In this document: piece after piece, positions 1 through 35,535 of the stretch
Numbering within the stretch: position 1 is the stretch's first letter
How the letters are laid out: every line of letters begins with the position of its first letter
IMG/VR virus record: IMGVR_UViG_3300029643_000041
Reading direction: 5' to 3' (one strand)
Length of the DNA stretch: 35,620 nucleotides
Source: a virus
Taxonomy: Duplodnaviria > Heunggongvirae > Uroviricota > Caudoviricetes
Translations under genes and position numbers: made by a program
Notes under the pieces: model-generated
What the model saw: only the letters and a program-made list of their open reading frames with translations
What the model was told of the DNA's origin: nothing
The model's database searches: none

Positions 1-55
1 GGCATCAGTCTTAATTAGTGCCACTGCTTTTCTTTGATGTCCCCATTTTGTGGAG

Positions 56-99
56 CCCATCAACCCCGCCATTTCGGTTCAAGGTTGATGGGTTTTTTG
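56..99 (+). terminator. Host-side hairpin plus T-run overlapping attL
   Basis: cccatcaacc / ggttgatggg 10-bp stem with about 17-nt loop, followed by tttttt; the 3' arm and the T-run lie in the att core. Confidence 0.45.
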
Positions 100-113
100 T
101 TGCCTGAAATTTA
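88..113. repeat. attL core, 26-bp direct repeat atgggttttttgttgcctgaaattta
   Basis: Exact copy of the sequence at 34939-34964; lies just outside ogr, where P2/186 phages carry att. Confidence 0.75.
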
Positions 114-1588: not shown

Positions 1589-2070
1589 GACAGAAGCCCT
1601 CCCACCGTTTTACTGATATCGCTTAAGGCAGATGTTGCCGTTCCCTGCAGATTATTCAGCTGCGCACTGAGATCACCGAACATATCGGACAGGGATTCAT
1701 CCACCCGTTTGAGCAACAGGGTGAACTCAATCCGGCGCGGCATACCGTCGCGGAAAAACTCCGTTTTAGTCTGATTCAGTCCCTCAATCACATACATGCC
1801 ATAAATCGTGCCGCTGCCTTCAATCAGGGGCCATGCTTTCCCCTGTTCTGCCATCTGCTCCAGTGCCAGCAACGACAGCCTGCCGCCTGTTATCTCCGGC
1901 ATAAGAACACCGGAAAGCGTCAGCATGTCGTTGTCCGGTCCCAGAAACTGCGTGGACGGACGACGGTTTACCCGACTGTTTGCCGCATGTCGCCAGCTAC
2001 GTTGATACTGCAGTTCCTGATACGGCACGGTGCGCAGCATAAACACGTACAATCCCAGTACCATCATCAT
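1585..2070 (-). CDS. U: Tail protein U
   Basis: 161 aa (P2 gpU is 159 aa); stop overlaps D start; recognised as gpU family. Confidence 0.85.
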   Translation of the reverse strand: MMMVLGLYVFMLRTVPYQELQYQRSWRHAANSRVNRRPSTQFLGPDNDMLTLSGVLMPEITGGRLSLLALEQMAEQGKAWPLIEGSGTIYGMYVIEGLNQTKTEFFRDGMPRRIEFTLLLKRVDESLSDMFGDLSAQLNNLQGTATSALSDISKTVGGLLS

Positions 2071-5000
2071 GCGTCGTATCCCCCCTGATCGCTGTAGTTA
2101 CTCCTGGCTTTTGCCTTCAGCCTGCGTTCACGTTCATCAAGCTGGCGGGCCACCTCCCGCGCAATATCCTGCGCACTTTGTCCTGGCTGTGTCTGGATGA
2201 TGATCTGCGTCGGTGCTTCAATCCGGTAAATGGGCGGCACAGTAGCTGCACGACTCACCATCGCTTCACCGCCTTTCGCGGGAAGCGCCAACGGATGCAA
2301 CGGTGGAAGCTCTGCAGGCGCGGCAGCAACGCCCATCATTCCGGCAACAACGGCAGCCAGTGCAGCTGTATTTCTCCGGCTGGTCACATTTGCCGGGCCG
2401 TTAACAATTTCCGGCCCGTTTTCACCGACGATGCCAAACTGCCCGCGCGGGATATAGCCGCCGCTGTCATACATCCCCGCAAAGCCATATCCCCATGACG
2501 GAAAACCACCCGATGGCATCATCACTTTACCGTCTGCATTCACCGTCGCAGGTTGCTGACGCGTCACGCTTTCCGGCAGTTTCGCCTTTGCAGCCTCTTT
2601 ACTGACAATGCCGAGTTTATCCAGCAACCAGGAAACGCCGGATTTCAGGGAGTCCAGCGGATGCATGACCATATTCAGCCCTTCCGCCAGTGCCTCCCCG
2701 AATCTCCGCCCCATTGCCGCTGCGCTCTGCAGTTCGGCAGAGGTCGACTTAACGGGTGTCAGCAGATCAGTAAACCAGCCCCACAGCGCCTGCACTTTGT
2801 CGCCAATCCACTGAAACACAGGCTTAAGTGGTTCGAACGCTGCACTGATGGGACCTGCCGCCGCTTTGAATCCTTCCACCACGCCACCAAGAAATGCGGT
2901 GATGGGTTGCCAGTATTTCCAGACAACCAGCGCCACGCCCGCCAGTGCAGTAACCACAAGACCTATCGGACTGAGCAGAGCGCCTAACAGACCAGATATG
3001 GCATACAGAGCAACGCGCAGCATCGCCAGCGGGCCGGATGCCAGCACTCGCAGCACCGCGCCTGCGGCTGCCAGTCCACCGCGCAGTACCGCCAGAGGAT
3101 TCATAAACATCACAGCAACAGCACGTAAAGCGGATAATCCAGACCGCAACAGTGCAACCGGCGCACCTGCTACAGTTTTCAGGACATTCCCCGTCAGTGA
3201 TGCCGTGCGGCGCAAAGACGACAACGGCGCAGTAAGTAAACCCGCTGCGTTGCCCGATGAAGCAAGCCTGCGTCGCAGCAGTGCCAGTGGAGCGCCAGCT
3301 AACCAAGACAACGCGCTGCTGGTTCGTGTTACTGCTGCCGTAACGGAAGGTAACGTTTTGATACCCAGCACAGAGAATCCCAGACGGATGACTGCCAGCG
3401 GCCCCAGCACTGCAGCCAGCGCCACCGCTAAGGTGCCGAGGCCCACGGTAACGGCAGCCACAACAGCCGCTACTTTCATCAGTGTGCCTGTCAGTTCCGG
3501 GTTAGCTTCCACCCAGCGGCGCAACGACCCCGTGATGCTTTTCACCGTGTACAGAATATCCATCAGCGGCTGGCGCAGCGTTTCGCCCAGGCTGCTGAAG
3601 GTGTTCTGCGCTCCGGTTTTGACCAGCAACCACTGAGCAGAAAGTGAGTCTTTGTTGATGTCGGATTCTTTCTGCATGGAACCGAGCGCATCATTGCCCG
3701 CTGTCAGTTTTAACTGGCGCTGCAGTTCCGGAAGGTTGTTTGCCAGTTTCGCCGCGTCATCTCCAAACTCTTTACCAAACAACATGGTCATGGCAGACAG
3801 ACGCTTATCCTGCGGCAGTGCGTTCACCTTCTCCAGCACACGCTGGATAGTTCCCATCGCATCCTTCGTCATCTGCTTTTCAATCACTTCAGGATTGAGT
3901 TTCAGCAGATTCATCCCTTCAAAGAAACTCTTGCTCTGCATGGTGGCAATGGACAATTCACGCACCATCGCGTTTGCTGCACTGGCTGCAACCTCCGGCG
4001 CAGCGCCCAGTGTCAGGAAGGTGGAACCCAGCGCCGCCGCTTTACGATAATCCAGACGGTCAGCCACACCGCCCAGACGTTGCATGACATCAATGATGTC
4101 TGCCCCTTTCGACATGGCGTTATCATCCAGATAGTTCAGCGCATCACCGAGCTGTTCAATATTGCGGGTAGGGATTTTGTAGAGCTGGGCGATTTTCCCC
4201 AGACTTTCTGACAGTTCATCCGCTGGCAGCTCAAAGGCTGTTGCAGCCTTTGCTGCCGTACTGGCGAAGGCCAGCAGGTCACGTTTCTGGTCTTCCCAGC
4301 TGTCGTCAGGATTTGCGACGTTCATGCGCGCACCACCTTCAACCAGTGCGGCAAAGTCCACAGCACCGTTTTCCATCGGCAACTGTTCGCTGGCAGCCTT
4401 GATGGCATCCTGCATTTCGTAAAAACGCGCAGTGCGGTTGCCATTATCATCACGCAGACCATTGACCTGCTTTGCCACACCTTTCATGGCATCTTCCATG
4501 CTGGTATAGCTTTTTACTGCTGCCATCACTGGCGCACCCATTGCCAGCCCTGCAGCCGTGGTAGTGGCTCCGGCTCCTGCAATGCGATCGCGCACTTCAA
4601 GCCGTCTTGAGTATTGTTCTCTGGCAGCGTTCATCCGTGCCTGTTGTTCACCCAGACGTTTAAGTGCTTTTTGCTGGCCCTCCAGTGCCTGCCTTGTTTC
4701 TTCAGCATTTTTCTTAAGTTCTCGCTGGGCACTACTGAGTTGTCTGGTATCAATCCCTGATTCTTTAAGTGCCTGACGTTGTCTCTGGACCGCCCCCAAC
4801 AAGCCGTTATAGGTCTGCTGAAGTTCCTGTACTCGTGTTTTGGCCTGACTGAATAACTTTGCCTGCGCGGCGGTTGGCCTGTTAGTGGCAGCAAATTGTG
4901 TGGCGAGTTTTGCCGCCTCTTCGCGGGCTGCGTTCAGGTTGTTGGCTGTTATGGCTAGTTGCGAGCGCGTCTTGCGAAATTCATCAATTCTGCCAGCCTG

Positions 5001-5144
5001 CTTATTCAGTTCTTTGAGGCTGTTTCGGGTATTCTGAATTGCGCCAGCCAGCTCTTTCGAACTGGCCTGTGCAGCACGGAATGGGCGGGTGAGTTTGTCA
5101 ACCGCATTAAGAATGACCTGCAGGCGCAGGTTATTATCACTCAT
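2067..5144 (-). CDS. T: Tail tape measure protein
   Basis: 1025 aa with a coiled-coil-rich N-terminus and Ala/Gly/Leu-rich hydrophobic repeats; sits between E/E' and U. Longer than P2 gpT (815 aa). Confidence 0.9.
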   Translation of the reverse strand: MSDNNLRLQVILNAVDKLTRPFRAAQASSKELAGAIQNTRNSLKELNKQAGRIDEFRKTRSQLAITANNLNAAREEAAKLATQFAATNRPTAAQAKLFSQAKTRVQELQQTYNGLLGAVQRQRQALKESGIDTRQLSSAQRELKKNAEETRQALEGQQKALKRLGEQQARMNAAREQYSRRLEVRDRIAGAGATTTAAGLAMGAPVMAAVKSYTSMEDAMKGVAKQVNGLRDDNGNRTARFYEMQDAIKAASEQLPMENGAVDFAALVEGGARMNVANPDDSWEDQKRDLLAFASTAAKAATAFELPADELSESLGKIAQLYKIPTRNIEQLGDALNYLDDNAMSKGADIIDVMQRLGGVADRLDYRKAAALGSTFLTLGAAPEVAASAANAMVRELSIATMQSKSFFEGMNLLKLNPEVIEKQMTKDAMGTIQRVLEKVNALPQDKRLSAMTMLFGKEFGDDAAKLANNLPELQRQLKLTAGNDALGSMQKESDINKDSLSAQWLLVKTGAQNTFSSLGETLRQPLMDILYTVKSITGSLRRWVEANPELTGTLMKVAAVVAAVTVGLGTLAVALAAVLGPLAVIRLGFSVLGIKTLPSVTAAVTRTSSALSWLAGAPLALLRRRLASSGNAAGLLTAPLSSLRRTASLTGNVLKTVAGAPVALLRSGLSALRAVAVMFMNPLAVLRGGLAAAGAVLRVLASGPLAMLRVALYAISGLLGALLSPIGLVVTALAGVALVVWKYWQPITAFLGGVVEGFKAAAGPISAAFEPLKPVFQWIGDKVQALWGWFTDLLTPVKSTSAELQSAAAMGRRFGEALAEGLNMVMHPLDSLKSGVSWLLDKLGIVSKEAAKAKLPESVTRQQPATVNADGKVMMPSGGFPSWGYGFAGMYDSGGYIPRGQFGIVGENGPEIVNGPANVTSRRNTAALAAVVAGMMGVAAAPAELPPLHPLALPAKGGEAMVSRAATVPPIYRIEAPTQIIIQTQPGQSAQDIAREVARQLDERERRLKAKARSNYSDQGGYDA

Positions 5145-5573
5145 CGTTGGCCCCGCTTCTCTGAATCGCTTTATACCGCCATTCCAGCACTTCGGTCAGC
5201 GGCATAACGTCAGTAACGGATGGCGGCCAGTGAAAAATGGTGGCGATATCTGCCACCAGATCGTCAACCGTCAGGCTGTCGGTAAACCGGCAAGTACCGA
5301 CTTCTTCAACAAAAAAGTGACAACCTCAACCGACATAGCGGTGAGATCTGCCGGGTCCATCTCTGCAATTTCCTGTGCGGTCAGTGCCGGACTGGAGATG
5401 CGGGGGATCACGGTCATCATCGCGTTTACATCCATATCCATAATGGCCTGCAGGCGTGTACCGCGCAGCGCACCGGACTGCGGTTTACGCAGCACAATTT
5501 CGGTGATTTCTGTTTTACCGCGCTTGATGGGGGTATCCAGTTGAATGGTCTTTTCAGTCTGCTTATCGCTCAT
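5137..5573 (-). CDS. E': E+E' fusion product made by a programmed -1 frameshift at T TTT TTG
   Basis: Slippery heptamer in the E frame at 5316..5310 (minus strand); the -1 frame then stays open (VEEVGTCRFTDSLTVDDLVADIATIFHWPPSVTDVMPLTEVLEWRYKAIQRSGANDE) to a TGA at 5139-5137, overlapping the T start, as in P2. Confidence 0.6.
5271..5573 (-). CDS. E: Tail assembly chaperone E
   Basis: 100 aa ORF ending ...VTFLLKKSVLAGLPTA; contains the T TTT TTG slippery heptamer near its 3' end. Confidence 0.85.
   Translation of the reverse strand: MSDKQTEKTIQLDTPIKRGKTEITEIVLRKPQSGALRGTRLQAIMDMDVNAMMTVIPRISSPALTAQEIAEMDPADLTAMSVEVVTFLLKKSVLAGLPTA
5310..5316 (-). promoter_or_regulatory. -1 ribosomal frameshift slippery site T TTT TTG
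   Basis: Read directly from the minus strand in the E reading frame. Confidence 0.6.
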
Positions 5574-5627
5574 TTTGCTGTCCTGTAAATTGGGTTCTGG
5601 CGCGGCATTCCGCGCCGTTCAGATACA

Positions 5628-6143
5628 TCAGAGGCCGAGTGCGTTGCGGTGCGCTTCCATCAGGTCCACACCGTCCACAATTTCCACCATGTTGATAAGG
5701 TCCACTTCATAGAGCACCTCACCATTGATGGTCAGCTTCGCGTAGCTGTTGGTACTGGTCACTTTGGTGGTGTTGCTTTCGCCCGTCTTCCACTCACCAG
5801 AGTCAACTTCTTTGTGACGTCCACGCACCACAAGCTCCACGGCCTGCACTTCCCCGGTATCGTCACGCTGGATAGAGCCGGTAAAGCGCAACTGGATGCC
5901 ATCCACCGTGGCTTTGCCCATCTGCTTAAACAGCAGCAGTTCAGTACCACCAATGGAAAATTCTGTGTCCAGCGCACTGTCATCAAGCCCCAGATCCACA
6001 TCCACTGCACCTGGCATTCCGCCGCCGCGATACTTCTCATATTTGCGGGTGAATTTCGGCAGCGTCAGCGACTCTACGATCCCCTGCCAGTTGTTCCCGT
6101 CGTTAAACAGGTTCAGATGTTTTAATTTGCGTGGTAAAGCCAT
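5628..6143 (-). CDS. FII: Tail tube protein FII
   Basis: 171 aa (P2 FII is 172 aa), immediately downstream of FI. Confidence 0.9.
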   Translation of the reverse strand: MALPRKLKHLNLFNDGNNWQGIVESLTLPKFTRKYEKYRGGGMPGAVDVDLGLDDSALDTEFSIGGTELLLFKQMGKATVDGIQLRFTGSIQRDDTGEVQAVELVVRGRHKEVDSGEWKTGESNTTKVTSTNSYAKLTINGEVLYEVDLINMVEIVDGVDLMEAHRNALGL

Positions 6144-6152
6144 GTTGTCCCC

Positions 6153-7325
6153 TTACGCGCTGACCTGGCTGGCAAAATTCACCAGATACTGATCGGTGAT
6201 GCGCTGGCGCAGCATCAGATTTTCAAGTGGCGGCACTGGCGTGTAGTCGTAGTCGATGGTGAGCTTCCCGGCTTTCAGCGTGTCTTTATCGTTCACCGAC
6301 TCGTCCAGCCAGCAATCACCACCAATGAGATAGCCCTGACTGACCAGGCTGCGCATTTTGGCGCGGATACCTTCGATAATGTCGCGGGCCAGCGACTGAT
6401 TCAGCGGTTTGTCCACCGCCCACATGTGCGCTTCTGCCATCGTGTCCATCAGCACCTGCGCCGTGCGGGTGTAGTTTTCGAAGGCAAAGAGCGGATCATC
6501 GCTCAGACAGCGGGAACCCCAGAAGCGAAAACCATCCTTGCGCACAAGCGTGGTGACGTCGTTCTGGTTCAGCAGACCTGCATCGGTTGCCGGGTCCTGC
6601 AGATCCCAGAACACATCTGCAGAAATTCCGGTGACACCGTTCACGCCCACGTTGGACAGGCTTTTGTGCCATCCGGTTTGCTCGTCAATTTTGGCGCGCA
6701 GACCAAGCGCACGGGCGGTGGCATATGCCGTTGCTTCGGCATTCAGCACAGTGTCCCAGCCAGTAAAGTCAGGCCAGATCAGCATCCCTTCGCGCTGGCT
6801 AAAGTTTTCACGGTAAGTGATCGCCTCCTGTACCGTCTTGCAGCCATATGCTGACAGGTAAGCAAATCCACGCAGGCTTTGCGCCACGCTCAGCAACTCA
6901 GTAGCTACCGCCTTGGTGTCGTGGCCTGGCACGCCGAGAATGCGCGGTTTAACGCCGAGCTGTGACTGGGCAGATAACAGGGCTTTCATACCTGTTTTTT
7001 TACCTTCAGCAGTCACTGCGCCGATGATATTGGTCGTGGTTTCGTCTTCCGTTTCACCCTGCGGCACACGCACAACAACGGTCACGGGTTTTGCCTGGTC
7101 AGCGATGGCATCCAGCGAACGGGCCAGCGTACCGGACTCACCCGCTTTACCGCTGGCAGTAAGCACATCAGTGATCAGCACGGGTTTATTAAGAGGGAAC
7201 ATTTTTGCATCGGCATCATCGCCCGTGCAGACCATGCCCACGATGGCGGTGCTCACCGTAGTAATGGATCGAGTGCCTTCGTTGACTTCAACAACGCGCA
7301 CCCCGTGGTGGTAATCCTGAGCCAT
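6153..7325 (-). CDS. FI: Tail sheath protein FI
   Basis: 390 aa (P2 FI is 396 aa); recognised as contractile sheath family. Confidence 0.9.
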
Positions 7326-7467: not shown

Positions 7468-8034
7468 TCAGGGAGATTCATTGCTCTTATTTGCCGGAAA
7501 TTTTCGATAAATGGTAGAAACGCCTACATCAAAAATCAGTGCAATACGCTGTCTTGATTCTCCGGCCTCGAGTAAACGCCCAATCTGTGCCCACTGTTCG
7601 CTGGTCAACTTAGGACGGCGTCCACCTACTCTGCCTTTAACACGAGCTGCAGCCAGCCCTGCCCTGGTACGTTCAACTATCAGTTCGCGTTCCATTTCAG
7701 CCAGGGCACCCATGACATGAAAAAAGAAACGGCCCATTGGGGTACTGGTATCAATACTGTCAGTCAGGCTTCGGAAATTCACGCCACGCTGGCGCAACTC
7801 TTCTATCAGCGTAACAAGATGCCGCATACTGCGCCCCAACCTGTCCAGCTTCCAGACAACCAGCGTGTCTCCTGCCGATAGTGTTCTGAGCAGTTTTTTC
7901 AGTCCCGGTCGGTCGGACTTCGTGCCGCTGATTTTATCCTCAAAAATCCGCTCGCATCCTGCGCACTCCAGCGCGTTACGCTGCAATTCCGTGTTCTGGT
8001 CATTTGTTGACACGCGTACATAGCCAATAAGCAT
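7468..8034 (-). CDS. Serine recombinase, DNA invertase of the Gin/Hin/Pin/Cin family
   Basis: 188 aa; MLIGYVRVSTNDQ...DTLVVWKLDRLGRS...MGRFFFHVMGALAEMERELIVERT...GGRRPKL...GVSTIYRKF closely resembles Hin/Gin, including the catalytic Ser region and C-terminal HTH. Confidence 0.9.
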   Translation of the reverse strand: MLIGYVRVSTNDQNTELQRNALECAGCERIFEDKISGTKSDRPGLKKLLRTLSAGDTLVVWKLDRLGRSMRHLVTLIEELRQRGVNFRSLTDSIDTSTPMGRFFFHVMGALAEMERELIVERTRAGLAAARVKGRVGGRRPKLTSEQWAQIGRLLEAGESRQRIALIFDVGVSTIYRKFPANKSNESP

Positions 8035-8091
8035 GAGTATCCCCCTGAATAAAAACCGGAGATGATGCCTGTTGCCCGTTATCTCTGCATT

Positions 8092-8115
8092 TTCATAAAC
8101 GTTGGTTTAGGAGAA
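8092..8115. repeat. Inversion crossover site 1 (gix/hix-like)
   Basis: ttcataaacgttggtttaggagaa; its reverse complement shares a 14-bp half-site (ttctcctaaaccaa) with the site at 9881-9906; lies next to the invertase gene. Confidence 0.65.
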
Positions 8116-8460
8116 GCGGCGAAAAGGGATGTGGGCACAGGAGATAATCAGATACCGGATATGTCTTTCTGGTCTTCCGCATCGGGTGGCGTTAATTTCC
8201 CTAATGGATTCCAGATGCGATTCGGTGCTATCGCTGGTAATGGTGGAAAATTATTTTCTACGCCATTTACAAATCAGTGCTATGGCATTGTTTTCGGACA
8301 AACATATGGAGCCAACTACTGGATGTTCAGCCCGATGTACAGAGCATCTGATCTGAGTAATACCAGTTTTGCATTCATTAACAAAGCCTGGTCTGGAATT
8401 CCGGGGACAGGTGCTCAGGACGCTGGTGAATCAGTTTTTTATATTGCAGTAGGGTATTAA
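8104..8460 (+). CDS. Alternative, currently unexpressed tail-fibre C-terminal segment
   Basis: Open frame from the crossover site encoding GLGEAAKRDVG...NGFQMRFGAIAG...; would join the constant part of H (…LSYLGLGE) in frame after inversion. Confidence 0.6.
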   Translation, partial: GLGEAAKRDVGTGDNQIPDMSFWSSASGGVNFPNGFQMRFGAIAGNGGKLFSTPFTNQCYGIVFGQTYGANYWMFSPMYRASDLSNTSFAFINKAWSGIPGTGAQDAGESVFYIAVGY

Positions 8461-8461
8461 T

Positions 8462-8905
8462 ATGGAAATGGTTTATAGCGCCTCAAATAATAGTTTTTTC
8501 GCTAAAAATGATGTGGCGAAATATGAACAGGCCGGATGGGAACTTGCTGATATTGTCGAAGTGACATATGACACTTACCTGGAATTTATTGAAGACAGAA
8601 CGTTGCAAGGGAAAGTACGCATCGCGGGTGATGATGGCCTTCCCACCTGGGGGGAAATTCCACCGCCAACTCATGAGGAACAAATTGCCGCAGCCGAACT
8701 GGAAAAGCAGCAATTGATTAATCAGGTCAACGAATACATAAACAGTAAGCAATGGCCTGGTAAAGCAGCGATTGGTCGCCTAAAAGGTGAGGAACTGGCG
8801 CAATATAATTTGTGGCTGGATTATCTGGACGCACTGGAACTGGTTGATACCTCCAGTGCTCCAGATATTGAATGGCCTACGCCTCCGGCAGTTCAGGCCA
8901 GATGA
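8462..8905 (+). CDS. Alternative tail fibre assembly protein
   Basis: 147 aa; C-terminus (…ELVDTSSAPDIEWPTPP) parallels the C-terminus of G (…TATDTSTAPDVIWPELP); converges on G with a 29-bp 3' overlap. Confidence 0.75.
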   Translation: MEMVYSASNNSFFAKNDVAKYEQAGWELADIVEVTYDTYLEFIEDRTLQGKVRIAGDDGLPTWGEIPPPTHEEQIAAAELEKQQLINQVNEYINSKQWPGKAAIGRLKGEELAQYNLWLDYLDALELVDTSSAPDIEWPTPPAVQAR

Positions 8906-9479
8906 CGTCCGGCGCTGTGCTGGTATCTGTTGCCGTCACCGCATCAATGTAATCCAGCACAGCGTTAAGTCGGGTGTTTTCTGTCTGCGTCAGCTTCCGC
9001 CCGGCCTGCAATTTCAGTTGAATCAGACTAATGGAAGCCATTGCAGTATCAATCAGTGACTGACGCTGTGCTTCTGCCGCGTCTAGTGCGGCGCTATGCT
9101 GTGCCTCAGTATCTGTCACCCATTTCTCACCATCCCATTCATCGTATGGCGTTAACGGGGCGATAGTGGTTGTATTTTCAGGGTAATCACCTGGTGCTGT
9201 GATTTCTTTTGATTCTCCTGTTTCGGTGCTAAAAACGATTTCACCGCGATGGTCTGGCACATATTCCCATGAGTTAAAATCTGCAGAACGGCAGATTGCA
9301 TAACCAGCTTTACGTGTAACTGGTGAATCTAAACAGGAATATGCAGGGATACCGACACCAATGGCAAGATATTCATTTGAAGTAGAAATATATTCCCGAG
9401 TTTTACCATCATAGTTATAGACGGTAATATTCCCCGCCTTCGTGGCAATAAGCTCGCTATTTAATACGGCGTTATCCAT
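8877..9479 (-). CDS. G: Tail fibre assembly protein G
   Basis: 200 aa directly downstream of H; carries the conserved Tfa C-terminal motif. Confidence 0.85.
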   Translation of the reverse strand: MDNAVLNSELIATKAGNITVYNYDGKTREYISTSNEYLAIGVGIPAYSCLDSPVTRKAGYAICRSADFNSWEYVPDHRGEIVFSTETGESKEITAPGDYPENTTTIAPLTPYDEWDGEKWVTDTEAQHSAALDAAEAQRQSLIDTAMASISLIQLKLQAGRKLTQTENTRLNAVLDYIDAVTATDTSTAPDVIWPELPEA

Positions 9480-10942
9480 TATGCAGCCCTTACGATATAG
9501 TTAAATGCAATATTTCGTGGACGGGTTTCGCTCCCGCCATATGATGATGTAAATCCCGAATATGCCCGGTGTCCCGCATCCGTCGTATTAGCCCAGGAAG
9601 GACCGCTAGAAGTATAGATGACCCCATTGTAATCATGGCCGTGTGCCTCAATGCTCCCGTCCTGAGCAGACAGGAGAGTCCGTCCTGAATCAATTCCTCT
9701 TCCATCATCCCACCCACGAATGAATTCGCCGCGTAAATCTGGCAATTTATTTGTCGGATAAACTTTTGCCAGTTCCGGATACTCTTCGGCAGAAAAAGCT
9801 GCACCGTTGCATTTCAGCCAGCCTGTTGGCGGTGTGACTGAAGGCCACGGAACAGGCACACCTACGGGTAATGCAGAGCCTTCTCCTAAACCAAGGTATG
9901 AGAGAAGACCAGCGACATCCTTTCCACTCAAATTAGTCAGCGTATTGTCCAGCGGTTGTTTACCTGCCAGCGCATTAAGCATTGTCGTGGCAAAGTTCGG
10001 ATCATTCCCCAGTGCCGCCGCCAGTTCGTTCAGTGTATCCAGTGCAGCAGGTGCTGACCCCACCATTGCTGCAATTGCCGATTTCACAAAAGCCGTGGTG
10101 GCAATCTGTGTATTGTTAACCGACTGTGCGGCAGTGGGGGCTGTTGGCGTTCCGGTGAGTGCCGGACTTGACAGCGGCGCTTTCAGTGCCAGCGCATTGT
10201 TAATGGTGGTACTGAATTTCGGATCATTGTTAATGGCTGCGGCTAATTCTTTCAGCGTGTCCAGCGTGGCTGGCGCACCATTAATCAGGGCCGTCAGTGC
10301 CGCCTGAACAAACGCGGTGGTCGCAACCTGCGTGGTGTTATTCCCTGCCGCTGGCGTTGGCGCTTTTGGTGTCCCGGTAAACGTCGGACTTTCTTTGGGT
10401 GCATACTGTGAATGCGGGTCCGGTGCGGCAAGATGTTTTGCCATCTGATCATCCACGTACACCTTCAGCTCCAGTACCTTGTCATCCACATACTTGCGGG
10501 TTGCCAGCACTACGGCAGGGTCGATTTTCAGGGTGATATTGTCCGTGCTGCTGGTAATCAGCACCATGCGCACGGTCTGGGTACGCCCGCTGCCTTCAGC
10601 CAGTTGCGGTTTATAGCTTTCCGGGCAGTTCCCCACGGCAATCAATGCCCCTGACTCATCAAACAGGCCCACTTCACGTATCCACCAACCGCCCTCGTTT
10701 TCAGGGATCACCTGTTCAGCAATAATCTGGCTGCTGTTCTGCGGGTCGATATAGAGCATATTCAGCGCAGCCCGGCGTTTCTCATTTACCAGTGCCGTCT
10801 GCTTTGCGTCCGGCGTCGGCAATGCTCCGCCGCCATCGCCCACCGCCATATGGGTAATTTTTAGCGGCACACCGAGCGCGGCGGCGCTGGCAAGTTTCGC
10901 CGCGCCAATATCCGTCAGCAGGGTATAAAATTTTGTGCTCAT
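9479..10942 (-). CDS. H: Tail fibre protein H
   Basis: 487 aa; N-terminus MSTKFYTLLTDIGAAKLA typical of P2 H; internal tandem fibre repeats; C-terminal WLKCNGAAFSAEEYPELAKVYP...DLRGEFIRGWDDGRGID receptor-domain motif. Confidence 0.9.
   Translation of the reverse strand: MSTKFYTLLTDIGAAKLASAAALGVPLKITHMAVGDGGGALPTPDAKQTALVNEKRRAALNMLYIDPQNSSQIIAEQVIPENEGGWWIREVGLFDESGALIAVGNCPESYKPQLAEGSGRTQTVRMVLITSSTDNITLKIDPAVVLATRKYVDDKVLELKVYVDDQMAKHLAAPDPHSQYAPKESPTFTGTPKAPTPAAGNNTTQVATTAFVQAALTALINGAPATLDTLKELAAAINNDPKFSTTINNALALKAPLSSPALTGTPTAPTAAQSVNNTQIATTAFVKSAIAAMVGSAPAALDTLNELAAALGNDPNFATTMLNALAGKQPLDNTLTNLSGKDVAGLLSYLGLGEGSALPVGVPVPWPSVTPPTGWLKCNGAAFSAEEYPELAKVYPTNKLPDLRGEFIRGWDDGRGIDSGRTLLSAQDGSIEAHGHDYNGVIYTSSGPSWANTTDAGHRAYSGFTSSYGGSETRPRNIAFNYIVRAA
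9881..9906. repeat. Inversion crossover site 2, inside H
   Basis: ttctcctaaaccaaggtatgagagaa encodes LLSYLGLGE in the H frame; inverted relative to site 1. Confidence 0.65.
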
Positions 10943-22202: not shown

Positions 22203-22886
22203 TTAAGGCATTCTATTCTCAAAAACATGCTTTATCGCAGTGGTAAAGCATCTATCTTTTACATTCTTTTTAAACTCATCAAAGACCATAGATCTAACAT
22301 CTTCAATTTCACATCCTGATTCAATAAGCTGAGATGCACATCCGACCAGTTCCTTTATTAATGTCATGCTTAATTCTATTGCACGTCTTCTTTCCGCCTT
22401 GACTCCTCCTGAGGACGGGTTTAAGTTAAATACTCTTAACGTAACCTCTGCCATTTTGTGTTCTTTCTCATTCAAGCCTTCTCTAATATGAACATCACCA
22501 TTTTCCAAAAAATGGAAAAAAACATCTGGATTTTGTCTATCAGCTTTAATTAAATCATCATCGTTATATTTTTGCTTATCCTTATAAAACCCACACCTTT
22601 GCGGCTCACCACATGAGCCAAACAAATTAGACCACTCGAAAGTTAAATTTTTGTAATAACTTTTCCTGTAAAAATGTTCAATATGCCTCTCAACTTTATT
22701 TTTGCCACCACTTTTATGATGCTCTATTTTTTTCTCGCAATAAGCACATAATTTACCTTGCATTTTTATTATTTCTTCCCATATTTCTTTTTTATCATTT
22801 GATGATAGGGAATTCCAATCATCCCTCCTATAGTCAAATTTATTAAGAACGGAAGGCCCTGGCATTTGCCTAGATAGATATTTCAT
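22203..22886 (-). CDS. HNH endonuclease, Septu PtuB-like retron effector component
   Basis: 227 aa; CAYCEKKIEHH...VERHIEHFYRK...CGEPQRC HNH/zinc motif; start overlaps the ATPase stop (ATGA); strongly AT-rich. Confidence 0.8.
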   Translation of the reverse strand: MKYLSRQMPGPSVLNKFDYRRDDWNSLSSNDKKEIWEEIIKMQGKLCAYCEKKIEHHKSGGKNKVERHIEHFYRKSYYKNLTFEWSNLFGSCGEPQRCGFYKDKQKYNDDDLIKADRQNPDVFFHFLENGDVHIREGLNEKEHKMAEVTLRVFNLNPSSGGVKAERRRAIELSMTLIKELVGCASQLIESGCEIEDVRSMVFDEFKKNVKDRCFTTAIKHVFENRMP

Positions 22887-24517
22887 TTTACATCCTTACT
22901 TCCAGAAAAGTGCTGATTTATCTTATTTTTGAACTCCAAAACAGATATAAGATCATCACACTCTTGAACTAAAGGATGGTCTAATCCGAAATGTTTAATA
23001 ACTTTTTCTCTTAACAAAAGAGCCTCGTCACTGCTATAACGATTAAGCTCAACCAATTTTTTATATTCTTCAAGCCAACCATTTTCTTTAGTAGAGGGTA
23101 TAGGATCAGTTCTCATTCCATATAAAAGTGCATCCTGATTACTAACACCTTTTATTTGATAGTCGGGGTGAGACACTATCAAATCATTAACACCATCTAC
23201 TTCCACTTCCTGTAGAATACGCACTGAACGAGAGCTAACAGTGGATAAAACCTGTGGGCTATGGGTAGTAATTACAAATTGAACATTTGGGAATGTAGAT
23301 GTCAAACGCTCAATAATTGTCTGTTGCCATTGCGGATGCAAATGCAAATCAATTTCATCAATTAAAACAATCCCATATCCCAATAGAGGATTAGATAAAT
23401 TTGGATTAAGTAAAATTAAACGTCGAGCCAAATCACCAACTAAAGTAAATATAGTTTTCTCACCTTGAGACAACTGTTGAATATCTAATTCAACCTCTCC
23501 TTTTTTAAGGATAATCTTATAATCATCATCACCATAAACAAGCTTAATCCACTGAAATTCAGGCAAGAACTTTAGAATGGTATTTATAACACTATCATAA
23601 AGTGATACTGCATTATTAAACTTATGTTCTCCTGATTGCAGAGATTTCATGTAGTTCAATTTTTCTTTAAGCGAAAGCTCTAAACCTTTTATAACTGTTG
23701 AATCAATATTATCAATCGCAGATAGTTGAGTTAATGTTGCTTTCAAACTCTGAATATCTGAAAATAACGCATTGATTGTCGTTTGTGACTCACTCAATTT
23801 CTCTTGTGAAGCTCTGTTATGAAGAAATACAAGCCATTGAAAAAAATCGGTAAAATCATTTCTGTCAAACTCGATTTCATCATACACATCGAATTTTGAC
23901 CATACAGTTTTAGTTTTAGCATTTTTTCTTTTCCTATCAACCCCACCGCCTATATAAGAACGCGCAATAGAATAATATGCCATCAAAGGCAAGCTTGCAT
24001 TATCAACATATTTATTCACAAGTCTATAAATACTTGCAAGTTTTTTTATCTCCAACAATTCATTATTTCTAGAATAATATGCCCCCTCTTTCGCTTTAGT
24101 AATCAAAATACTGGTATTAAAGTCCTTGAGTTTTATATTTGCATCAATTGATGCATACTCAACATCAACAGAGTTATTAACTTCATGGCTTTTAATATAA
24201 GTACCAGGCTTACTCTCCTTTTCAATATTTGATCTCAACCAACTCAAAACAATTGCTATTGCATCCAAAATAGTGCTTTTACCGAATCCGTTATCCCCGA
24301 CAAAAACAGTCAAATCATCTTCTAAAGAAATCTGTAGTTCTCTTATCCGTTTAAAATCATGTATACCTATTTTATTTAAATGAAACTTACTCTCATTTAA
24401 AGTAGATATTAGCTTTTGAAGCTCAACAGACTCCTTCAAATAATCCTCGTTTATCACATGTGATTCCAACTCTAAAAAATCAACATAGCAAGTCTCTAAA
24501 TTCATTTTATTTATCAT
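22883..24517 (-). CDS. P-loop ATPase, Septu PtuA-like retron effector component
   Basis: 544 aa; Walker A VFVGDNGFGKST, Walker B VLIDEIDLHLHP, then ITTHSP; translationally coupled to the RT upstream and the HNH downstream. Confidence 0.8.
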   Translation of the reverse strand: MINKMNLETCYVDFLELESHVINEDYLKESVELQKLISTLNESKFHLNKIGIHDFKRIRELQISLEDDLTVFVGDNGFGKSTILDAIAIVLSWLRSNIEKESKPGTYIKSHEVNNSVDVEYASIDANIKLKDFNTSILITKAKEGAYYSRNNELLEIKKLASIYRLVNKYVDNASLPLMAYYSIARSYIGGGVDRKRKNAKTKTVWSKFDVYDEIEFDRNDFTDFFQWLVFLHNRASQEKLSESQTTINALFSDIQSLKATLTQLSAIDNIDSTVIKGLELSLKEKLNYMKSLQSGEHKFNNAVSLYDSVINTILKFLPEFQWIKLVYGDDDYKIILKKGEVELDIQQLSQGEKTIFTLVGDLARRLILLNPNLSNPLLGYGIVLIDEIDLHLHPQWQQTIIERLTSTFPNVQFVITTHSPQVLSTVSSRSVRILQEVEVDGVNDLIVSHPDYQIKGVSNQDALLYGMRTDPIPSTKENGWLEEYKKLVELNRYSSDEALLLREKVIKHFGLDHPLVQECDDLISVLEFKNKINQHFSGSKDVK

Positions 24518-25452
24518 TATTTGTTTCCTTCCATCAGGAACTTAGTTATTAACTCACAACCATATTTTTTTTGTAACCTTAATAAAAAATCACCCTCCAA
24601 ATAATTTGCAAACGCAATCATCCCTTTGGTTTTATTTATTTCTTCGGAAGATAAGAGTCCCAAAGAATATTTATGAATCTTTGCAAACAGCATCCTTTTA
24701 CGATCGCGACCAATTGATAAATTGCCCTGAGGTGTAAGTGTTACACCAGTCACGTGCCGATTATGAGCCATCGATGTAAAAATTGTTTTAGATTCATTGA
24801 TTGATAGACCGGGAACATGGAGCGACAACATTTTTTTTACCACCTTAGGAACCCTGCACAATATATCCTTAATATTAGTTGAAAAAGTTATATCATCTGC
24901 ATACCTTGAATAAGTGATACCATTGTTACGGCACCAATCATCAAGACTCTTGTCAAAGTCATACATAACAAAATTACTAATAAATGGTGAGCTTGGCGCC
25001 CCTACACTTAATATCAACGTTGTACTTCTCTTTTTTCCCGGACGCCAAAAAAGCAAATTACGTAGGGTGTTCTCATCAAATGAATCCAATTTCAGCCCTG
25101 TGTTCTCAAGTTTCGAGAAAAATATATCAGGTTTAATTTTGTTAAAGAAGTTCTGAAAATCCATTTTAAGAATATAATTATTATCTTTATGCAACAATGC
25201 ATTATCTTTAATACTTTTTTTATATTCATATGCCATTGCCTTATGATGAACAGGCAGCTTTGGCTGTAGCAAAGATACTATAAATCTCTGTACGTTTTTT
25301 AGTTCCTTTGTCGGCTGAGCTATCACCCGAAAACCTGCGCCACGTTTAGGAATATAATAAACTTTATATTTTTTGGGGGCCTCATTTAAAAGTAATTGGA
25401 AAGCTAATCTATTATAATTAAACTTACTGATAATTTTAGAAGTTAGTTGCAT
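24517..25452 (-). CDS. Retron-type reverse transcriptase
   Basis: 311 aa; ILKMDFQNFF, SVGAPSSPFISNF, YSRYADDITF (YxDD box) and the retron-typical VTG triplet (HNRHVTGVTL); AGAGGGG Shine-Dalgarno before the ATG; preceded by a structured non-coding region. Confidence 0.85.
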   Translation of the reverse strand: MQLTSKIISKFNYNRLAFQLLLNEAPKKYKVYYIPKRGAGFRVIAQPTKELKNVQRFIVSLLQPKLPVHHKAMAYEYKKSIKDNALLHKDNNYILKMDFQNFFNKIKPDIFFSKLENTGLKLDSFDENTLRNLLFWRPGKKRSTTLILSVGAPSSPFISNFVMYDFDKSLDDWCRNNGITYSRYADDITFSTNIKDILCRVPKVVKKMLSLHVPGLSINESKTIFTSMAHNRHVTGVTLTPQGNLSIGRDRKRMLFAKIHKYSLGLLSSEEINKTKGMIAFANYLEGDFLLRLQKKYGCELITKFLMEGNK

Positions 25453-25700
25453 ATAACCCCTCTTAAAACCAAAGCGCCATGCAACTTTACATAGCGCTTT
25501 GACTCTTCACTAAAGACAGCGAAAGACACAGATTTCTCCTTCGCATATCTGCCCCGGGCAGGGATGCGAAGGAGAAATCTGTGTCTTTCGCAACCCTAAA
25601 CCGGACAATAAATTTAAGCCTGGCTAATCACCCGGCTGGAACCAATGTTCCTACACTAAAGAGCGTAATGATTTTAATGAACAAATAGATATAAGGCAAG
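25453..25700 (-). ncRNA. Candidate retron msr-msd non-coding RNA (limits approximate)
   Basis: Non-coding stretch directly 5' of the RT on the same strand; 28-bp perfect inverted repeat (arms 25519-25546 and 25564-25591, 17-nt loop) consistent with an msd stem; smaller hairpins at 25638-25651 and 25461-25490. Flanking a1/a2 repeats were not resolved by eye. Confidence 0.5.
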
Positions 25701-25704
25701 GCGC

Positions 25705-25735
25705 GCGCTCGTATCCCCGCCACGCCTGCCCGCTT
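25705..25735. other. cos-like GC-rich motif (candidate cohesive-end site)
   Basis: Minus-strand ggcgtggcggggatacgag matches 14 of 19 positions of the P2 cohesive end GGCGAGGCGGGGAAAGCAC as I recall it; lies between the Tum-module terminator and the retron. Confidence 0.3.
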
Positions 25736-25770
25736 TATGTAGTGGTTTTCATGCACCTGCATGATCTACG

Positions 25771-25797
25771 CAAAAGCCCGCCAGTTCTGGCGGGCCT
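25771..25797 (-). terminator. Rho-independent terminator closing the SOS/Tum-like operon
   Basis: Minus strand gcccgccag-aa-ctggcgggc followed by ttttg. Confidence 0.6.
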
Positions 25798-25930
25798 TAG
25801 CAAAAACGATCCTCAAACGATCATGCGATCTCATGCGGCATAGACATGCACTACAGAGCTAACGCCTCGCAAGGGCTCGTTGTTCAACCTTGCTGACGCC
25901 AGAAACAAGTTCAGACGCCAGCAACGTTTC

Positions 25931-33272: not shown

Positions 33273-33458
33273 TTTTTGCTTTTATATCTGCGCCTAATAT
33301 AACAATGAGCCGCAGGCTAACCGCAAAAGTCACATACTCACATAGCAAAAAATAGCCAACTTCATTATGGCTTCAGTGAGATGTATGGTCGCAAGATTTC
33401 ATACATTGACACTGGTTATACATACAGTAAAAATGCTCTCTATTGGAGGGCATTTTTT

Positions 33459-34490
33459 ATGGCAGTACGAAAACTCACCACAGGAAAATGGCTTTGCGAA
33501 TGTTACCCCGCCGGACGTAGTGGGCGTCGTGTGCGTAAACAATTCGCCACCAAAGGCGAAGCACTGGCTTTTGAGCGTCACACGATGGAAGAAACCGAAG
33601 CAAAGCCCTGGCTGGGCGAATCAGTAGATCGTCGAACCCTGAAAGACGTGGTTGAGCTATGGTTCAAACTACATGGTAAATCTCTGACTGCTGGGCAGCA
33701 TGTCTATGACAAATTGCTGCTGATGGTTGACGCTCTGGGCAATCCCCTTGCAACCGATCTCACATCTAAAATGTTTGCCCATTATCGAGATAAACGACTG
33801 ACAGGTGAGATCTACTTCAGCGAGAAATGGAAGAAAGGGGCCAGCCCGGTCACCATTAACCTGGAGCAAAGCTATCTAAGTAGTGTTTTTAGCGAACTAT
33901 CCCGCCTGGGCGAATGGTCGTATCCAAACCCACTGGAGAACATGCGAAAATTCACCATCGCAGAAAAAGAGATGGCATGGCTTACCCATGAGCAGATTGT
34001 TGAACTGCTGGATGATTGCAAACGTCAGGACCCAATTCTGGCACTGGTAGTCAAGATATGCTTAAGCACAGGCGCACGCTGGCGAGAAGCAATAAACCTT
34101 ACCCGCTCACAGGTGACCAAATACCGAATTACCTTTGTCAGAACGAAGGGGAAGAAAAACAGAAGCATCCCTATCAGTAAAGAGCTTTACGAAGAGATCA
34201 TGGCGCTCGATGGGTTCAATTTCTTCACAGACTGCTATTTTCAATTTTTATCCGTGATGGAAAAAACGTCTATCGTGCTCCCTCGCGGTCAACTGACACA
34301 CGTTCTGCGCCATACGTTTGCGGCGCATTTTATGATGTCGGGTGGAAATATCCTTGCTTTGCAAAAAATCCTCGGACATCACGACATAAAAATGACTATG
34401 CGTTACGCACATCTAGCACCGGATCACCTGGAAACTGCATTACGGTTTAATCCGCTGGCAACACTACCAACATCAATAGCAAGTTTTTGA
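33459..34490 (+). CDS. int: Tyrosine integrase
   Basis: Start at MAVRKLTTGKW (P2 Int begins MAIKKL); C-terminal HVLRHTFAAHFMMSGGNILALQKILGHHDIKMTMRYAHL catalytic region. The track ORF begins 26 codons upstream. Confidence 0.9.
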   Translation: MAVRKLTTGKWLCECYPAGRSGRRVRKQFATKGEALAFERHTMEETEAKPWLGESVDRRTLKDVVELWFKLHGKSLTAGQHVYDKLLLMVDALGNPLATDLTSKMFAHYRDKRLTGEIYFSEKWKKGASPVTINLEQSYLSSVFSELSRLGEWSYPNPLENMRKFTIAEKEMAWLTHEQIVELLDDCKRQDPILALVVKICLSTGARWREAINLTRSQVTKYRITFVRTKGKKNRSIPISKELYEEIMALDGFNFFTDCYFQFLSVMEKTSIVLPRGQLTHVLRHTFAAHFMMSGGNILALQKILGHHDIKMTMRYAHLAPDHLETALRFNPLATLPTSIASF

Positions 34491-34938: not shown

Positions 34939-34964
34939 ATGGGTTTTTTGTTGCCTGAAATTTA
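34939..34964. repeat. attR core, 26-bp direct repeat
   Basis: Exact copy of 88-113; lies downstream of int and is followed 5 bp later by the stop codon of a host TetR-family gene. Confidence 0.75.
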
Positions 34965-34968
34965 TCTA

Positions 34969-35535
34969 CTACCCAGCAATCCTCTCAACCATCCTCAAAA
35001 TCTCCTCGCGTGATAGCGGCTTACGGTCGGTGACAAAATGCAGCGTCATTCCCTCAATAAACGCATCAAGCGCGCGGGCGGTTCCGGGTTCAAACCATTG
35101 TTCGAGCGTTTGTTGACTGCGCTGCATCCAGTTTTGCATTACCGTTTTTAAGAGCGGTTTTCGGCTAGCCAGCGCGTAGAGCTGGTACATCAGCTCCATA
35201 TTATCCGGCGTTGCGACCTGTGAGCTGTAGATCATATCGGTGATAGCCTGGCATGCGCCTGGAGCATCACTAACATCGCTAAAAAATGCCTGATATTGCC
35301 GGGACATGATCTCAGTAAAACGGCTGAACGCCTCCAGCAACAACTCATCAATTCCTGAAAAATAGTAGGTCATCGATCCCAACGGCACCCCGGCAAGGGT
35401 AGCAATTGTGCGGTGTGTAACAGCATGTATTCCGTAAAGTTTCACCGCCTCCAGCGTGGCCTGGATAATTTTTTCTCGCCGTTGCGGATCGTTAGCGCGA
35501 CGCATGTCATTTCCTCTCTCTGCAATTGTGTACAA
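34969..35535 (-). CDS. Host TetR-family transcriptional regulator
   Basis: 188 aa; N-terminal TetR HTH ([37 protein letters not shown]); lies outside attR. Confidence 0.85.

Follow-up and report, generated by a model that had tools for sequence, protein, structure and literature searches.

The closest described system is that of phage P2, where a −1 frameshift at TTTTTTG yields E of 91 amino acids and E+E′ of 142 amino acids, as reported in PMC3091744. In P2, by the account of the literature, the fusion is produced at several percent of E translation, and tail assembly depends on it. The E and E+E′ pair of the FETUD operon is credited to Christie et al. 2002, as cited in PMC3091744 and PMC3931495. 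The lambda G/GT system likewise has two overlapping open reading frames, flanked by the major tail (tube) gene on one side and the tape measure gene on the other, from which two products with a common N terminus are made in a fixed ratio (PMC5009743, PMC3931495), and no amino-acid similarity exists between P2 E/E′ and lambda G/GT (PMC3931495). Lambda has a non-contractile tail, unlike the P2-type element, and its reported shift efficiency is lower, with P2-like phages shifting at 2–3 times the rate of lambda G-T, which is ∼1:30 (PMC5009743).

Architecture of the two-frame locus

The window, the whole 35,620-nucleotide stretch of DNA analysed here, carries on its minus strand a locus that is very probably the E/E+E′ programmed −1 ribosomal frameshift of a P2-like prophage (Peduoviridae, Fels-2/Elveevirus type). 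The arrangement is an ordinary one that has already been described, and it is intact here. Its features are the following:

5628..6143, minus strand: gene FII, tail tube, directly upstream of E (PF04985 Phage_tube, 9e-60)
5271..5573, minus strand: gene E, the 0-frame product of 100 amino acids (open reading frame with PF10109 and PHROG 103 matches)
5326..5328, minus strand: TGA closing the −1 frame 5′ of the slip site, the 5′ limit of the 55-nt zone that permits the full product
5310..5316, minus strand: slippery heptamer T_TTT_TTG, which falls into the X_XXY_YYZ register when read in the E frame (codon phase 2, offset 257 within E)
5137..5310, minus strand: E′, the −1 frame extension of 57 codons plus TGA 5139-5137 (PF06528; PHROG 1756 and 6416; diversity by codon phase)
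2067..5144, minus strand: gene T, tape measure of 1025 amino acids (PF10145 PhageMin_Tail, 2e-18)

Read on the minus strand, E runs from ATG 5573 to TGA 5273-5271 and has the C-terminal end ...VEVVTFLLKKSVLAGLPTA. The first T of TTTTTTG (5316-5310) is the third base of an E codon, which sets the register as T_TTT_TTG. The preliminary description had placed this heptamer in the E frame 13 codons before the stop, and the count bears this out, with the TTG codon followed by 12 more sense codons. Its second claim, of a −1 frame open for 57 codons up to a TGA that overlaps the start of T, also stands: from the re-read G5310, 57 codons (VEEVGTCRFTDSLTVDDLVADIATIFHWPPSVTDVMPLTEVLEWRYKAIQRSGANDE) precede TGA 5139-5137, and T begins at ATG 5144-5142, so that the last 8 nt of E′ also belong to T (ATGAGTGA, 5144-5137). 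The predicted E+E′ fusion is 145 amino acids long, with the junction peptide of the −1 ribosomal slip product predicted as ...VEVVTFLVEEVG... / ...SVEVVTFLVEEVGTCR.... The E and −1 frames are jointly open over just 55 nt (5325-5271), and T_TTT_TTG is the sole in-register X_XXY_YYZ heptamer inside this two-frame zone. Gene T shares the reading frame of E. The E/E′ pair sits between FII and T in the operon order FI-FII-E-T-U-D-ogr, where FI is the sheath gene and GpU, GpD, and Ogr follow the tape measure.

The heptamer alone was rejected as evidence of frameshifting, since shuffles predict 11 ± 3.4 copies of TTTTTTG and the window has 25. The 37 open reading frames of the window hold 47 in-register X_XXY_YYZ heptamers, and only from two of them does a −1 shift lead beyond the stop of the 0 frame. 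One is the present site; the other, G_GGG_GGA at 2085-2079, is by its position only the likely ribosome-binding site of gene U.

Both parts of the predicted fusion have recognizable relatives. Residues 9–88 of E match PF10109 (Phage_TAC_7) at 1e-18 and 67.5 bits (cut-off 25), and E as a whole scores 4e-44 against PHROG 103 (“tail protein”). The −1 extension has its match in PF06528 (Phage_P2_GpE), at 5e-19 and 67.9 bits (cut-off 23), so that chance is no explanation for the open −1 frame, and the open reading frame in that frame also matches PHROG 1756 and PHROG 6416. These matches place E in the P2 gpE tail-assembly-chaperone family and the extension in the P2 E′ family. At the threshold of E ≤ 0.01 the Pfam scan returned just PF10109 and PF06528, with no similarity of E/E′ to lambda gpG/gpGT; the analogy with lambda G/GT drawn in the preliminary description holds for organization and function (PMC5009743, PMC3931495), not for sequence homology. 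NCBIfam gave no match for E, E′, or the fusion, a PDB sequence search at E ≤ 1 found no relative with a solved structure, and Rfam placed no family in the locus at its gathering threshold and nothing meaningful at E ≤ 5.

The correspondence with P2, also proposed earlier, is close. P2 has both Pfam families, TTTTTTG in the same register, the 57-codon extension, and the placement between FII and T, all as here, and the P2 fusion that we reconstructed is 142 amino acids long, equal to the published length. In L-413C and Wphi the heptamer position and the 57-codon extension are as here, and both records carry an E+E′ join that runs 8 nt into T. No such join is given in the P2 record, where T nonetheless starts at the same position in the locus. 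The two systems differ in size, the fusion being 145 amino acids here and 142 in P2 (47.5% amino-acid identity) and E being 100 and 91, respectively. The two-frame overlap is 55 nt here and 37 nt in P2, so that the E tail after the slip site has 12 residues here as compared with 6 in P2. The locus confirms that the tail module of the prophage is intact and P2-type. Close relatives, given here with their protein identity across the locus, are the Fels-2/Elveevirus/Felsduovirus prophages Cartapus (Escherichia, 97.9%), 4LV2017 (Klebsiella, 96.6%), and RE-2010 (Salmonella, ∼86%), and all three have identical geometry, with the heptamer, 12 codons to the E stop, and the 57-codon extension.

Slippage itself, its frequency, and the chaperone role are modelled here on experiments with P2 and lambda. 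Ribosomes would begin at ATG 5573 and most would reach TGA 5271, releasing E as a 100-residue chaperone. A minority, with UUU occupying the P site and UUG the A site of U_UUU_UUG, would slip by −1 as both tRNAs re-pair, and would then read 57 codons to TGA 5137, giving a 145-residue protein made of E residues 1–88 and the E′ domain. On the lambda G/GT model, the part common to both products would coat the tape measure T, the E′ domain, being rare, would bring in the tube protein FII, and the slip rate would fix the ratio of E to E+E′.

Conservation of the slippery site and coding evolution of the −1 frame

The fusion protein, used as a tblastn query, matched 419 phage records, and in 386 of them the match extends over at least 80% of its length. 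Among the matches listed, all those with coverage of ∼80% or more are split into two pieces, corresponding to two frames, and none has both parts in one frame. In all 22 of a set of diverse loci, E′ lies in the −1 frame and the overlap contains an X_XXY_YYZ heptamer in register. The heptamer is T_TTT_TTG in 15 of these, including P2, L-413C, Wphi, PSP3, KS14, and phiCTX, where it occupies the homologous position, and T_TTT_TTT or T_TTT_TTC in four. The remaining three have one each of G_GGA_AAG, C_CCT_TTC, and A_AAT_TTT; the lambda slip site is G_GGA_AAG. A further 118 loci, gathered by a single-protein query and from independent assemblies, all have T_TTT_TTG (110) or T_TTT_TTA (8), with extensions of 57–64 codons. 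The codon before the run specifies Thr, Gly, Ser, Leu, Asp, or His among the relatives, yet always ends in T. The locus is also widespread: of 5426 complete E. coli genomes, 988 carry the region at 95% identity or more, and at least 80 IMG/VR contigs encode an E protein that is 100% identical over its 100 amino acids.

On 64 distinct gapless sequences, nucleotide diversity was computed separately for each codon phase. In the zone coding for E only, the values for the three phases are 0.046, 0.028, and 0.249; in the overlap they fall to 0.014, 0.022, and 0.049, with all three phases constrained; and in the zone coding for E′ only they are 0.016, 0.132, and 0.038. Past the E stop, the peak of diversity thus moves from the third positions of the E frame to those of the −1 frame. 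The switch includes the five codons (5270-5257) upstream of a GTG at 5256. The −1 frame thus evolves as coding sequence, and the switch of phase shows selection on both frames.

Other routes to an E′ product

The GTG at 5256 is the basis of an alternative in which E′ is a separate protein of 39 amino acids, made by independent initiation at this codon or by re-initiation after the E stop 12 nt upstream.

5254..5256, minus strand: GTG, the start in public records of a separate 39-residue “GpE family” CDS and the first ATG/GTG/TTG that follows the upstream stop in the −1 frame

No ATG, GTG, or TTG occurs in the −1 frame between the stop at 5328-5326 and GTG 5256. A separate “GpE family phage tail protein” CDS is annotated in Cartapus, p13P477T-2, RE-2010, ST11-OXA48phi15.3, phiE202, and RefSeq E. 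coli, a GTG or ATG is present at the aligned position in many relatives, and the PF06528 model spans just the last 37 residues of E′, all of which would fit a short protein. However, the codons at 5270-5257, which lie upstream of the GTG, show variation mainly at third positions of the −1 frame and none at second positions, the overlap is constrained in all three phases, and the alignment to PHROG 1756 begins at residue 3 of the 62-residue −1 frame open reading frame, which is the slip site. Moreover, the codon aligned to the GTG specifies Tyr in 1F53_PE003, Glu in H905, and Trp in VHML, none of them a start, and in phiMhaA1 it is Ile (ATT), a rare start at best. The match to the anti-SD sequence upstream of GTG 5256 is weak (−3.0 kcal/mol), although this discriminates poorly, the site of E itself reaching −4.0 kcal/mol; ribosome-binding-site strength was accordingly set aside as an uninformative test of independent initiation. 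The P2 E′ is described in PMC3931495 as an extension of E without a ribosome-binding site of its own, and a separate start offers no reason for the conserved in-register slippery heptamer. A separate 39-residue protein is consequently very unlikely, and GTG 5256 is probably not a real start; under the frameshift, the E′ part would be accessible solely through a shift from E.

The practical value of the site lies in annotation. Most public records split the locus into a “phage tail assembly protein” and the 39-residue “GpE family” CDS, so that the 145-residue E+E′ is absent from the protein sets of those records. The records of the Fels-2-type prophages, such as Cartapus and RE-2010, give E and a 39-residue “GpE” as two CDSs with no frameshift join, and the ten best-matching of the 988 E. 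coli genomes annotate two separate CDSs. Among curated records, a joined CDS noted as a −1 frameshift is found in L-413C, Wphi, and PSP3; KS14 labels E+E′, and Smp131 has a joined, unlabelled CDS.

The same two-frame fusion could in principle be reached by transcriptional slippage, in which RNA polymerase would add one U within the T6 run, giving a product of equal length that reads ...VTFFVEEV... instead of ...VTFLVEEV.... The site is a homopolymer run, and its six U residues leave a small formal possibility of polymerase slippage; the run is T7 in Smp131, 1F53_PE003, and ST11-OXA48phi15.3, and transcriptional slippage is a recoding route elsewhere, for example in type III secretion genes (PMC5009743). 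On the other hand, the heptamers at the homologous sites of phiMhaA1 (G_GGA_AAG), Kp4847-1 (C_CCT_TTC), and Shae_phiSM (A_AAT_TTT) are heteropolymeric X_XXY_YYZ sequences, which fits tandem tRNA slippage and not polymerase stuttering, and among the relatives the run is always in the X_XXY_YYZ register. Six residues are, in addition, fewer than the run lengths usually tied to efficient transcriptional slippage in bacteria, which counts against this route. The literature on P2 calls the event translational (PMC3091744, PMC3931495), and we regard a transcriptional origin as highly improbable.

An artefact or decay, be it a sequencing error, a pseudogenizing 1-bp indel, or a coincidental heptamer beside an open −1 frame, deserves almost no credence: homopolymer runs are prone to indel errors and TTTTTTG is common in the window, but the two-frame layout recurs in all 22 diverse phages, all 118 further loci, and the 988 E. 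coli genomes, a one-frame version is absent among the relatives listed, the −1 frame has a Pfam match at 5e-19, the codon-phase switch shows selection on both frames, and for the one other heptamer extending past a 0-frame stop the position suggests that it is the SD of gene U.

Sequences flanking the slip site

The U_UUU_UUG motif is not among the most efficient E. coli motifs in the survey of PMC4066793, and a shift rate of several percent would consequently need help from the sequence context. Two elements flanking the heptamer are candidates for such a role:

5324..5327, minus strand: SD-like GAGG, 8 nt upstream of the heptamer, a possible stimulator
5278..5301, minus strand: possible 7-bp hairpin GUCGGUA-N10-UACCGAC, starting 8 nt past the heptamer and part of the minimum free energy fold of a 39-nt segment

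No other site in E pairs as strongly with the anti-SD sequence as the GAGG (−6.8 kcal/mol), which agrees in motif and in spacing with the stimulators of PMC4066793, where experiments define the stimulatory distance as 6–17 nt. Of 49 distinct contexts, all from sequences related to one another, 40 have an SD-like motif, as compared with 13% of control positions. The motif encodes a conserved Glu/Lys-Val dipeptide, a confounder, and its conservation may simply mirror that dipeptide. All but one of 64 sequences use GAG at codon 83, while GAA is the codon at four of the five other conserved Glu positions.

The start of the hairpin at 8 nt fits the usual spacing of 5–9 nt between heptamer and structure (PMC5009743). 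Across 25 distinct sequences 90% of cells are paired, with just two double changes, and 13–16 of 500 shuffles do as well; the 39-nt segment that holds the hairpin has a fold z-score of −0.7. The fold of the 80 nt downstream has a z-score of −2.6, mostly due to distal helices, and fold z-scores across 12 relatives range from −1.7 to +1.0. The possible hairpin of the Fels-2/Elveevirus clade is absent in P2, KS14, and phiCTX, no downstream structure is common to P2, PSP3, KS14, phiCTX, phiE202, and SEN5, and PMC3091744 reports no hairpins in P2, KS5, KS14, or KL3. Because of the weak covariation, the z-score of the 39-nt segment, and the lack of anything common to the relatives, a downstream stimulatory structure lacks statistical support and is not claimed. 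Compared with most Fels-2-type records, the window has a G to A change at 5295 that puts Thr for Ala in E′ and also makes the closing pair of the putative hairpin A-U, not G-U.

The locus resembles the dnaX and IS3/IS911 cassettes in its X_XXY_YYZ heptamer, in the spacing of the GAGG, and in a potential stem-loop at 8 nt, the flanking elements here being candidates; it differs in that the heptamer is U-rich, that of the dnaX/IS type being A_AAA_AAG. We tentatively suggest, as a possibility that is itself rather doubtful, that the P2-like frameshift is boosted across much of the Peduoviridae by an SD-like element (GAGG, AGGTG, or GGNGG) 6–14 nt upstream, as in dnaX/IS911, and that in the Fels-2/Elveevirus clade the 7-bp hairpin may add to it. 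The upstream motif is a lead on how a weak U-rich heptamer attains a useful shift rate, and such a boost, if true, would explain how the modest U_UUU_UUG reaches 2–3 times the rate of lambda G-T.

The E/E' locus and its P2-type arrangement

The minus strand was read from 4900 to 6000 and every number in the preliminary description was recomputed, all of its coordinates and counts proving correct. The following features make up the region.

6153–7325: tail sheath gene, neighbour of tube gene FII
5628–6143: tail tube gene FII, neighbour of E
5573 (ATG) to 5273–5271 (TGA), minus strand: gene E, 100 residues
5316–5310, minus strand: slippery heptamer TTTTTTG
2067–5144: tape measure gene T, after E
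After T: genes for GpU, GpD and Ogr

The heptamer lies in the E frame 13 codons before the E stop, as first described (TTG, then a further 12 sense codons), in the register T_TTT_TTG because the run begins at the last base of an ACT codon. Re-reading of G5310 in the -1 frame opens the 57 codons originally counted, ending at TGA 5139–5137, with a predicted E+E' fusion of 145 residues (E residues 1–88 plus 57). The reported overlap with T also holds: the T reading frame (1025 residues) starts at ATG 5144–5142 and E' ends at 5137, so that the two share 8 nt (ATGAGTGA). Upstream, the -1 frame is shut by TGA 5328–5326, and in the 55-nt zone where both frames are open, TTTTTTG is the sole in-register X_XXY_YYZ heptamer.

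E matches Pfam PF10109 (“Phage tail assembly chaperone proteins, E, or 41 or 14”, 1e-18) and the -1 extension matches PF06528 (“Phage P2 GpE”, 5e-19), despite containing no ATG, GTG or TTG before GTG 5256. With these matches, the in-register heptamer and a gene order that is the P2 FI-FII-E-T-U-D-ogr layout, the P2 E/E' arrangement claimed for the locus is reproduced. Among phage records, those of Escherichia phage Cartapus (Elveevirus, 97.9%) and Klebsiella phage 4LV2017 are nearest; the E+E' protein of P2 is 47.5% identical to that of the window. In P2, the shift site TTTTTTG yields E (91 residues) and E+E' (142 residues) (PMC3091744), and the P2 fusion rebuilt here is also of 142 residues. 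P2 E' is without a ribosome-binding site, shares 37 nt with the end of E and also runs into T (PMC3931495); the 37-nt overlap was reproduced. Exactly the same join is annotated as a -1 frameshift in the notes to the L-413C, Wphi and PSP3 records, is labelled E+E' in KS14 and is present, unlabelled, in Smp131. The earlier interpretation is supported: the locus carries the E/E+E' frameshift already known from P2, in a type of prophage that is very common.

Conservation of the slip site and the switch of frame

The heptamer by itself is no evidence, with 25 copies of TTTTTTG in the window against 11 expected; it is the combination that counts. A -1 product running past the 0-frame stop is produced by only two of 47 in-register X_XXY_YYZ heptamers (37 ORFs, 31 kb), namely TTTTTTG 5316–5310 and G_GGG_GGA 2085–2079 (minus strand). 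The latter is in register three codons before the T stop, its -1 frame is that of gene U and its product would be a T-U fusion. Read from position only, it is most simply the Shine-Dalgarno sequence of U, because it lies 9 nt before the U ATG (2070).

With the fusion as query, tblastn matched 419 phage records, 386 of them with at least 80% query coverage. Among the matches listed, all those with about 80% coverage or more were split into two pieces in two frames, and no relative with E and E' in one frame was seen. Further loci (21) were fetched from enterobacterial phages and phages of Burkholderia, Ralstonia, Pseudomonas, Stenotrophomonas, Vibrio and Mannheimia; E' lies in the -1 frame, with an in-register slippery heptamer inside the overlap, in 22/22 loci including the window. 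The heptamer is T_TTT_TTG in 15, T_TTT_TTT in two, T_TTT_TTC in two, and G_GGA_AAG, C_CCT_TTC and A_AAT_TTT in one each. In another 118 loci (38 species-representative genomes and 80 IMG/VR contigs) it is T_TTT_TTG (110) or T_TTT_TTA (8), with extensions of 57–64 codons. Among relatives the last base is G, A, C or T and the six before it show no variation, and the preceding codon specifies Thr, Gly, Ser, Leu, Asp or His, always with a final T. The pattern of substitution at the run shows a constraint on the nucleotides and not on the protein.

Nucleotide diversity by E-frame codon phase in 64 distinct gapless sequences
Zone: phase 0 (E position 1); phase 1 (E position 2); phase 2 (E position 3)
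E only: 0.046; 0.028; 0.249
Overlap: 0.014; 0.022; 0.049
E' only: 0.016; 0.132; 0.038

Position 2 of the E frame corresponds to position 3 of the -1 frame, and the diversity peak thus shifts to the -1-frame wobble position. The five codons from the E stop to GTG 5256 already have the -1 pattern, with changes mainly at third and never at second positions.

Most records, including PGAP-annotated RefSeq genomes, imply instead a separate 39-residue protein independently initiated at GTG 5256. They carry two CDSs, a “phage tail assembly protein” and a 39-residue “GpE family phage tail protein” whose start is the equivalent GTG (OV696611.1, CP019275.1, NC_019488.1 and the best 10 RefSeq matches among 988 E. 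coli genomes, H103–H112). Against such a start stand the coding-type conservation upstream of the GTG, the PHROG 1756 match, which covers the -1 extension from the slip site onward, and the aligned codon, which is a non-start in three relatives (Tyr, Glu, Trp) and ATT (Ile) in a fourth; ribosome-binding-site strength does not discriminate either way. Because no -1 join is annotated, the E+E' fusion is absent from these records' protein sets, and a correction of the annotation is a useful by-product. The RSY1 record has a single CDS that begins at an upstream ATG of the -1 frame, and its N-terminal part is probably read in the wrong frame.

Transcriptional slippage at the T6 run is an unlikely alternative, as three relatives have a heteropolymeric heptamer at the homologous site and the register is kept in every case. 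So many independent assemblies have the same layout that sequence errors in the region, a concern raised in the preliminary description, and a pseudogene are excluded. Of 5426 complete E. coli genomes, 988 carry the region at 95% identity or more, and the E protein is 100% identical across 100 residues in at least 80 viral contigs.

Mechanism and candidate stimulators

Tandem -1 tRNA slippage on U_UUU_UUG is the best explanation, and would yield mostly E with E+E' in a minority. In lambda, both G and GT bind the tape measure through their shared G part, GT also binds the major tail protein through its T domain, and the ratio is ∼30:1; frameshifting in P2-like phages is 2–3 times more frequent (PMC5009743). 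By analogy, E and E+E' would have corresponding chaperone roles.

A potential stem, GUCGGUA-N10-UACCGAC (5301–5278), begins 8 nt past the heptamer. In 25 distinct sequences of the same clade, 90% of cells are paired and one pair shows a U-A, U-G, C-G series; there are only two double changes, 13–16 of 500 shuffles do as well and the stability is unremarkable. The stem is absent from P2, KS14 and phiCTX, and no downstream hairpins were seen in P2-like Burkholderia phages (PMC3091744).

On the 5' side, GAGG 5324–5327 (minus strand) is the strongest anti-Shine-Dalgarno match within gene E and agrees in motif and spacing with the rule drawn from experiments in PMC4066793. Over this site and homologous positions in loci L003–L059, a GAGG, AGGTG or GGNGG motif occurs 6–14 nt 5' of the heptamer in 40/49 distinct, though related, contexts versus 13% of control positions; among phage-level relatives it occurs in 11/18. 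The motif falls in the codons for a conserved Glu/Lys-Val dipeptide, whose Glu codon is GAG in 63/64 sequences, with GAA at four of five other conserved E-gene Glu codons. The element, a testable lead, may stimulate frameshifting from the 5' side or may simply reflect the dipeptide; the evidence is suggestive, not proof.

Possible invertible segment, cargo and likely prophage ends

7468–8034: serine DNA invertase (Resolvase and HTH_7, 6e-53), adjoining the tail-fibre gene
8062–8460, plus strand: ORF preceding 8462–8905
8462–8905, plus strand: tail-fibre-assembly gene (Caudo_TAP), opposite in orientation to the next
8877–9479, minus strand: tail-fibre-assembly gene (Caudo_TAP)
9479–10942: tail-fibre gene
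22203–22886, minus strand: PtuB-like HNH nuclease (1.5e-117)
22883–24517, minus strand: PtuA-like ATPase (1e-193)
24517–25452, minus strand: reverse transcriptase (PADLOC RT_I-A, 5e-131)
23–101, plus strand: RybB sRNA (Rfam RF00110, 105 bits), left edge of the window
34969–35535: TetR-family host gene, right flank

The 7468–9479 region looks like an invertible host-range segment of the Mu G/P1 C type. As to its putative crossover sites, the sole inverted repeat detected is a weak one (8815–8832/8941–8958, 78%).

After the portal gene lies a cargo of three genes (22203–25452, minus strand), which by their matches appear to form a type I-A retron defence system. Rfam at the gathering threshold gave no match upstream of the reverse transcriptase (about 25452–25900), where the msr/msd RNA is expected. 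The cargo is not common to the closest Klebsiella phages, whose match stops at 22111.

A 26-bp direct repeat, ATGGGTTTTTTGTTGCCTGAAATTTA, is found at 88–113, in the 3' end of rybB, and at 34939–34964, just past the integrase gene (33381–34490). The two copies are likely to be attL and attR of a prophage of ∼34.8 kb that inserted into rybB at its 3' end.
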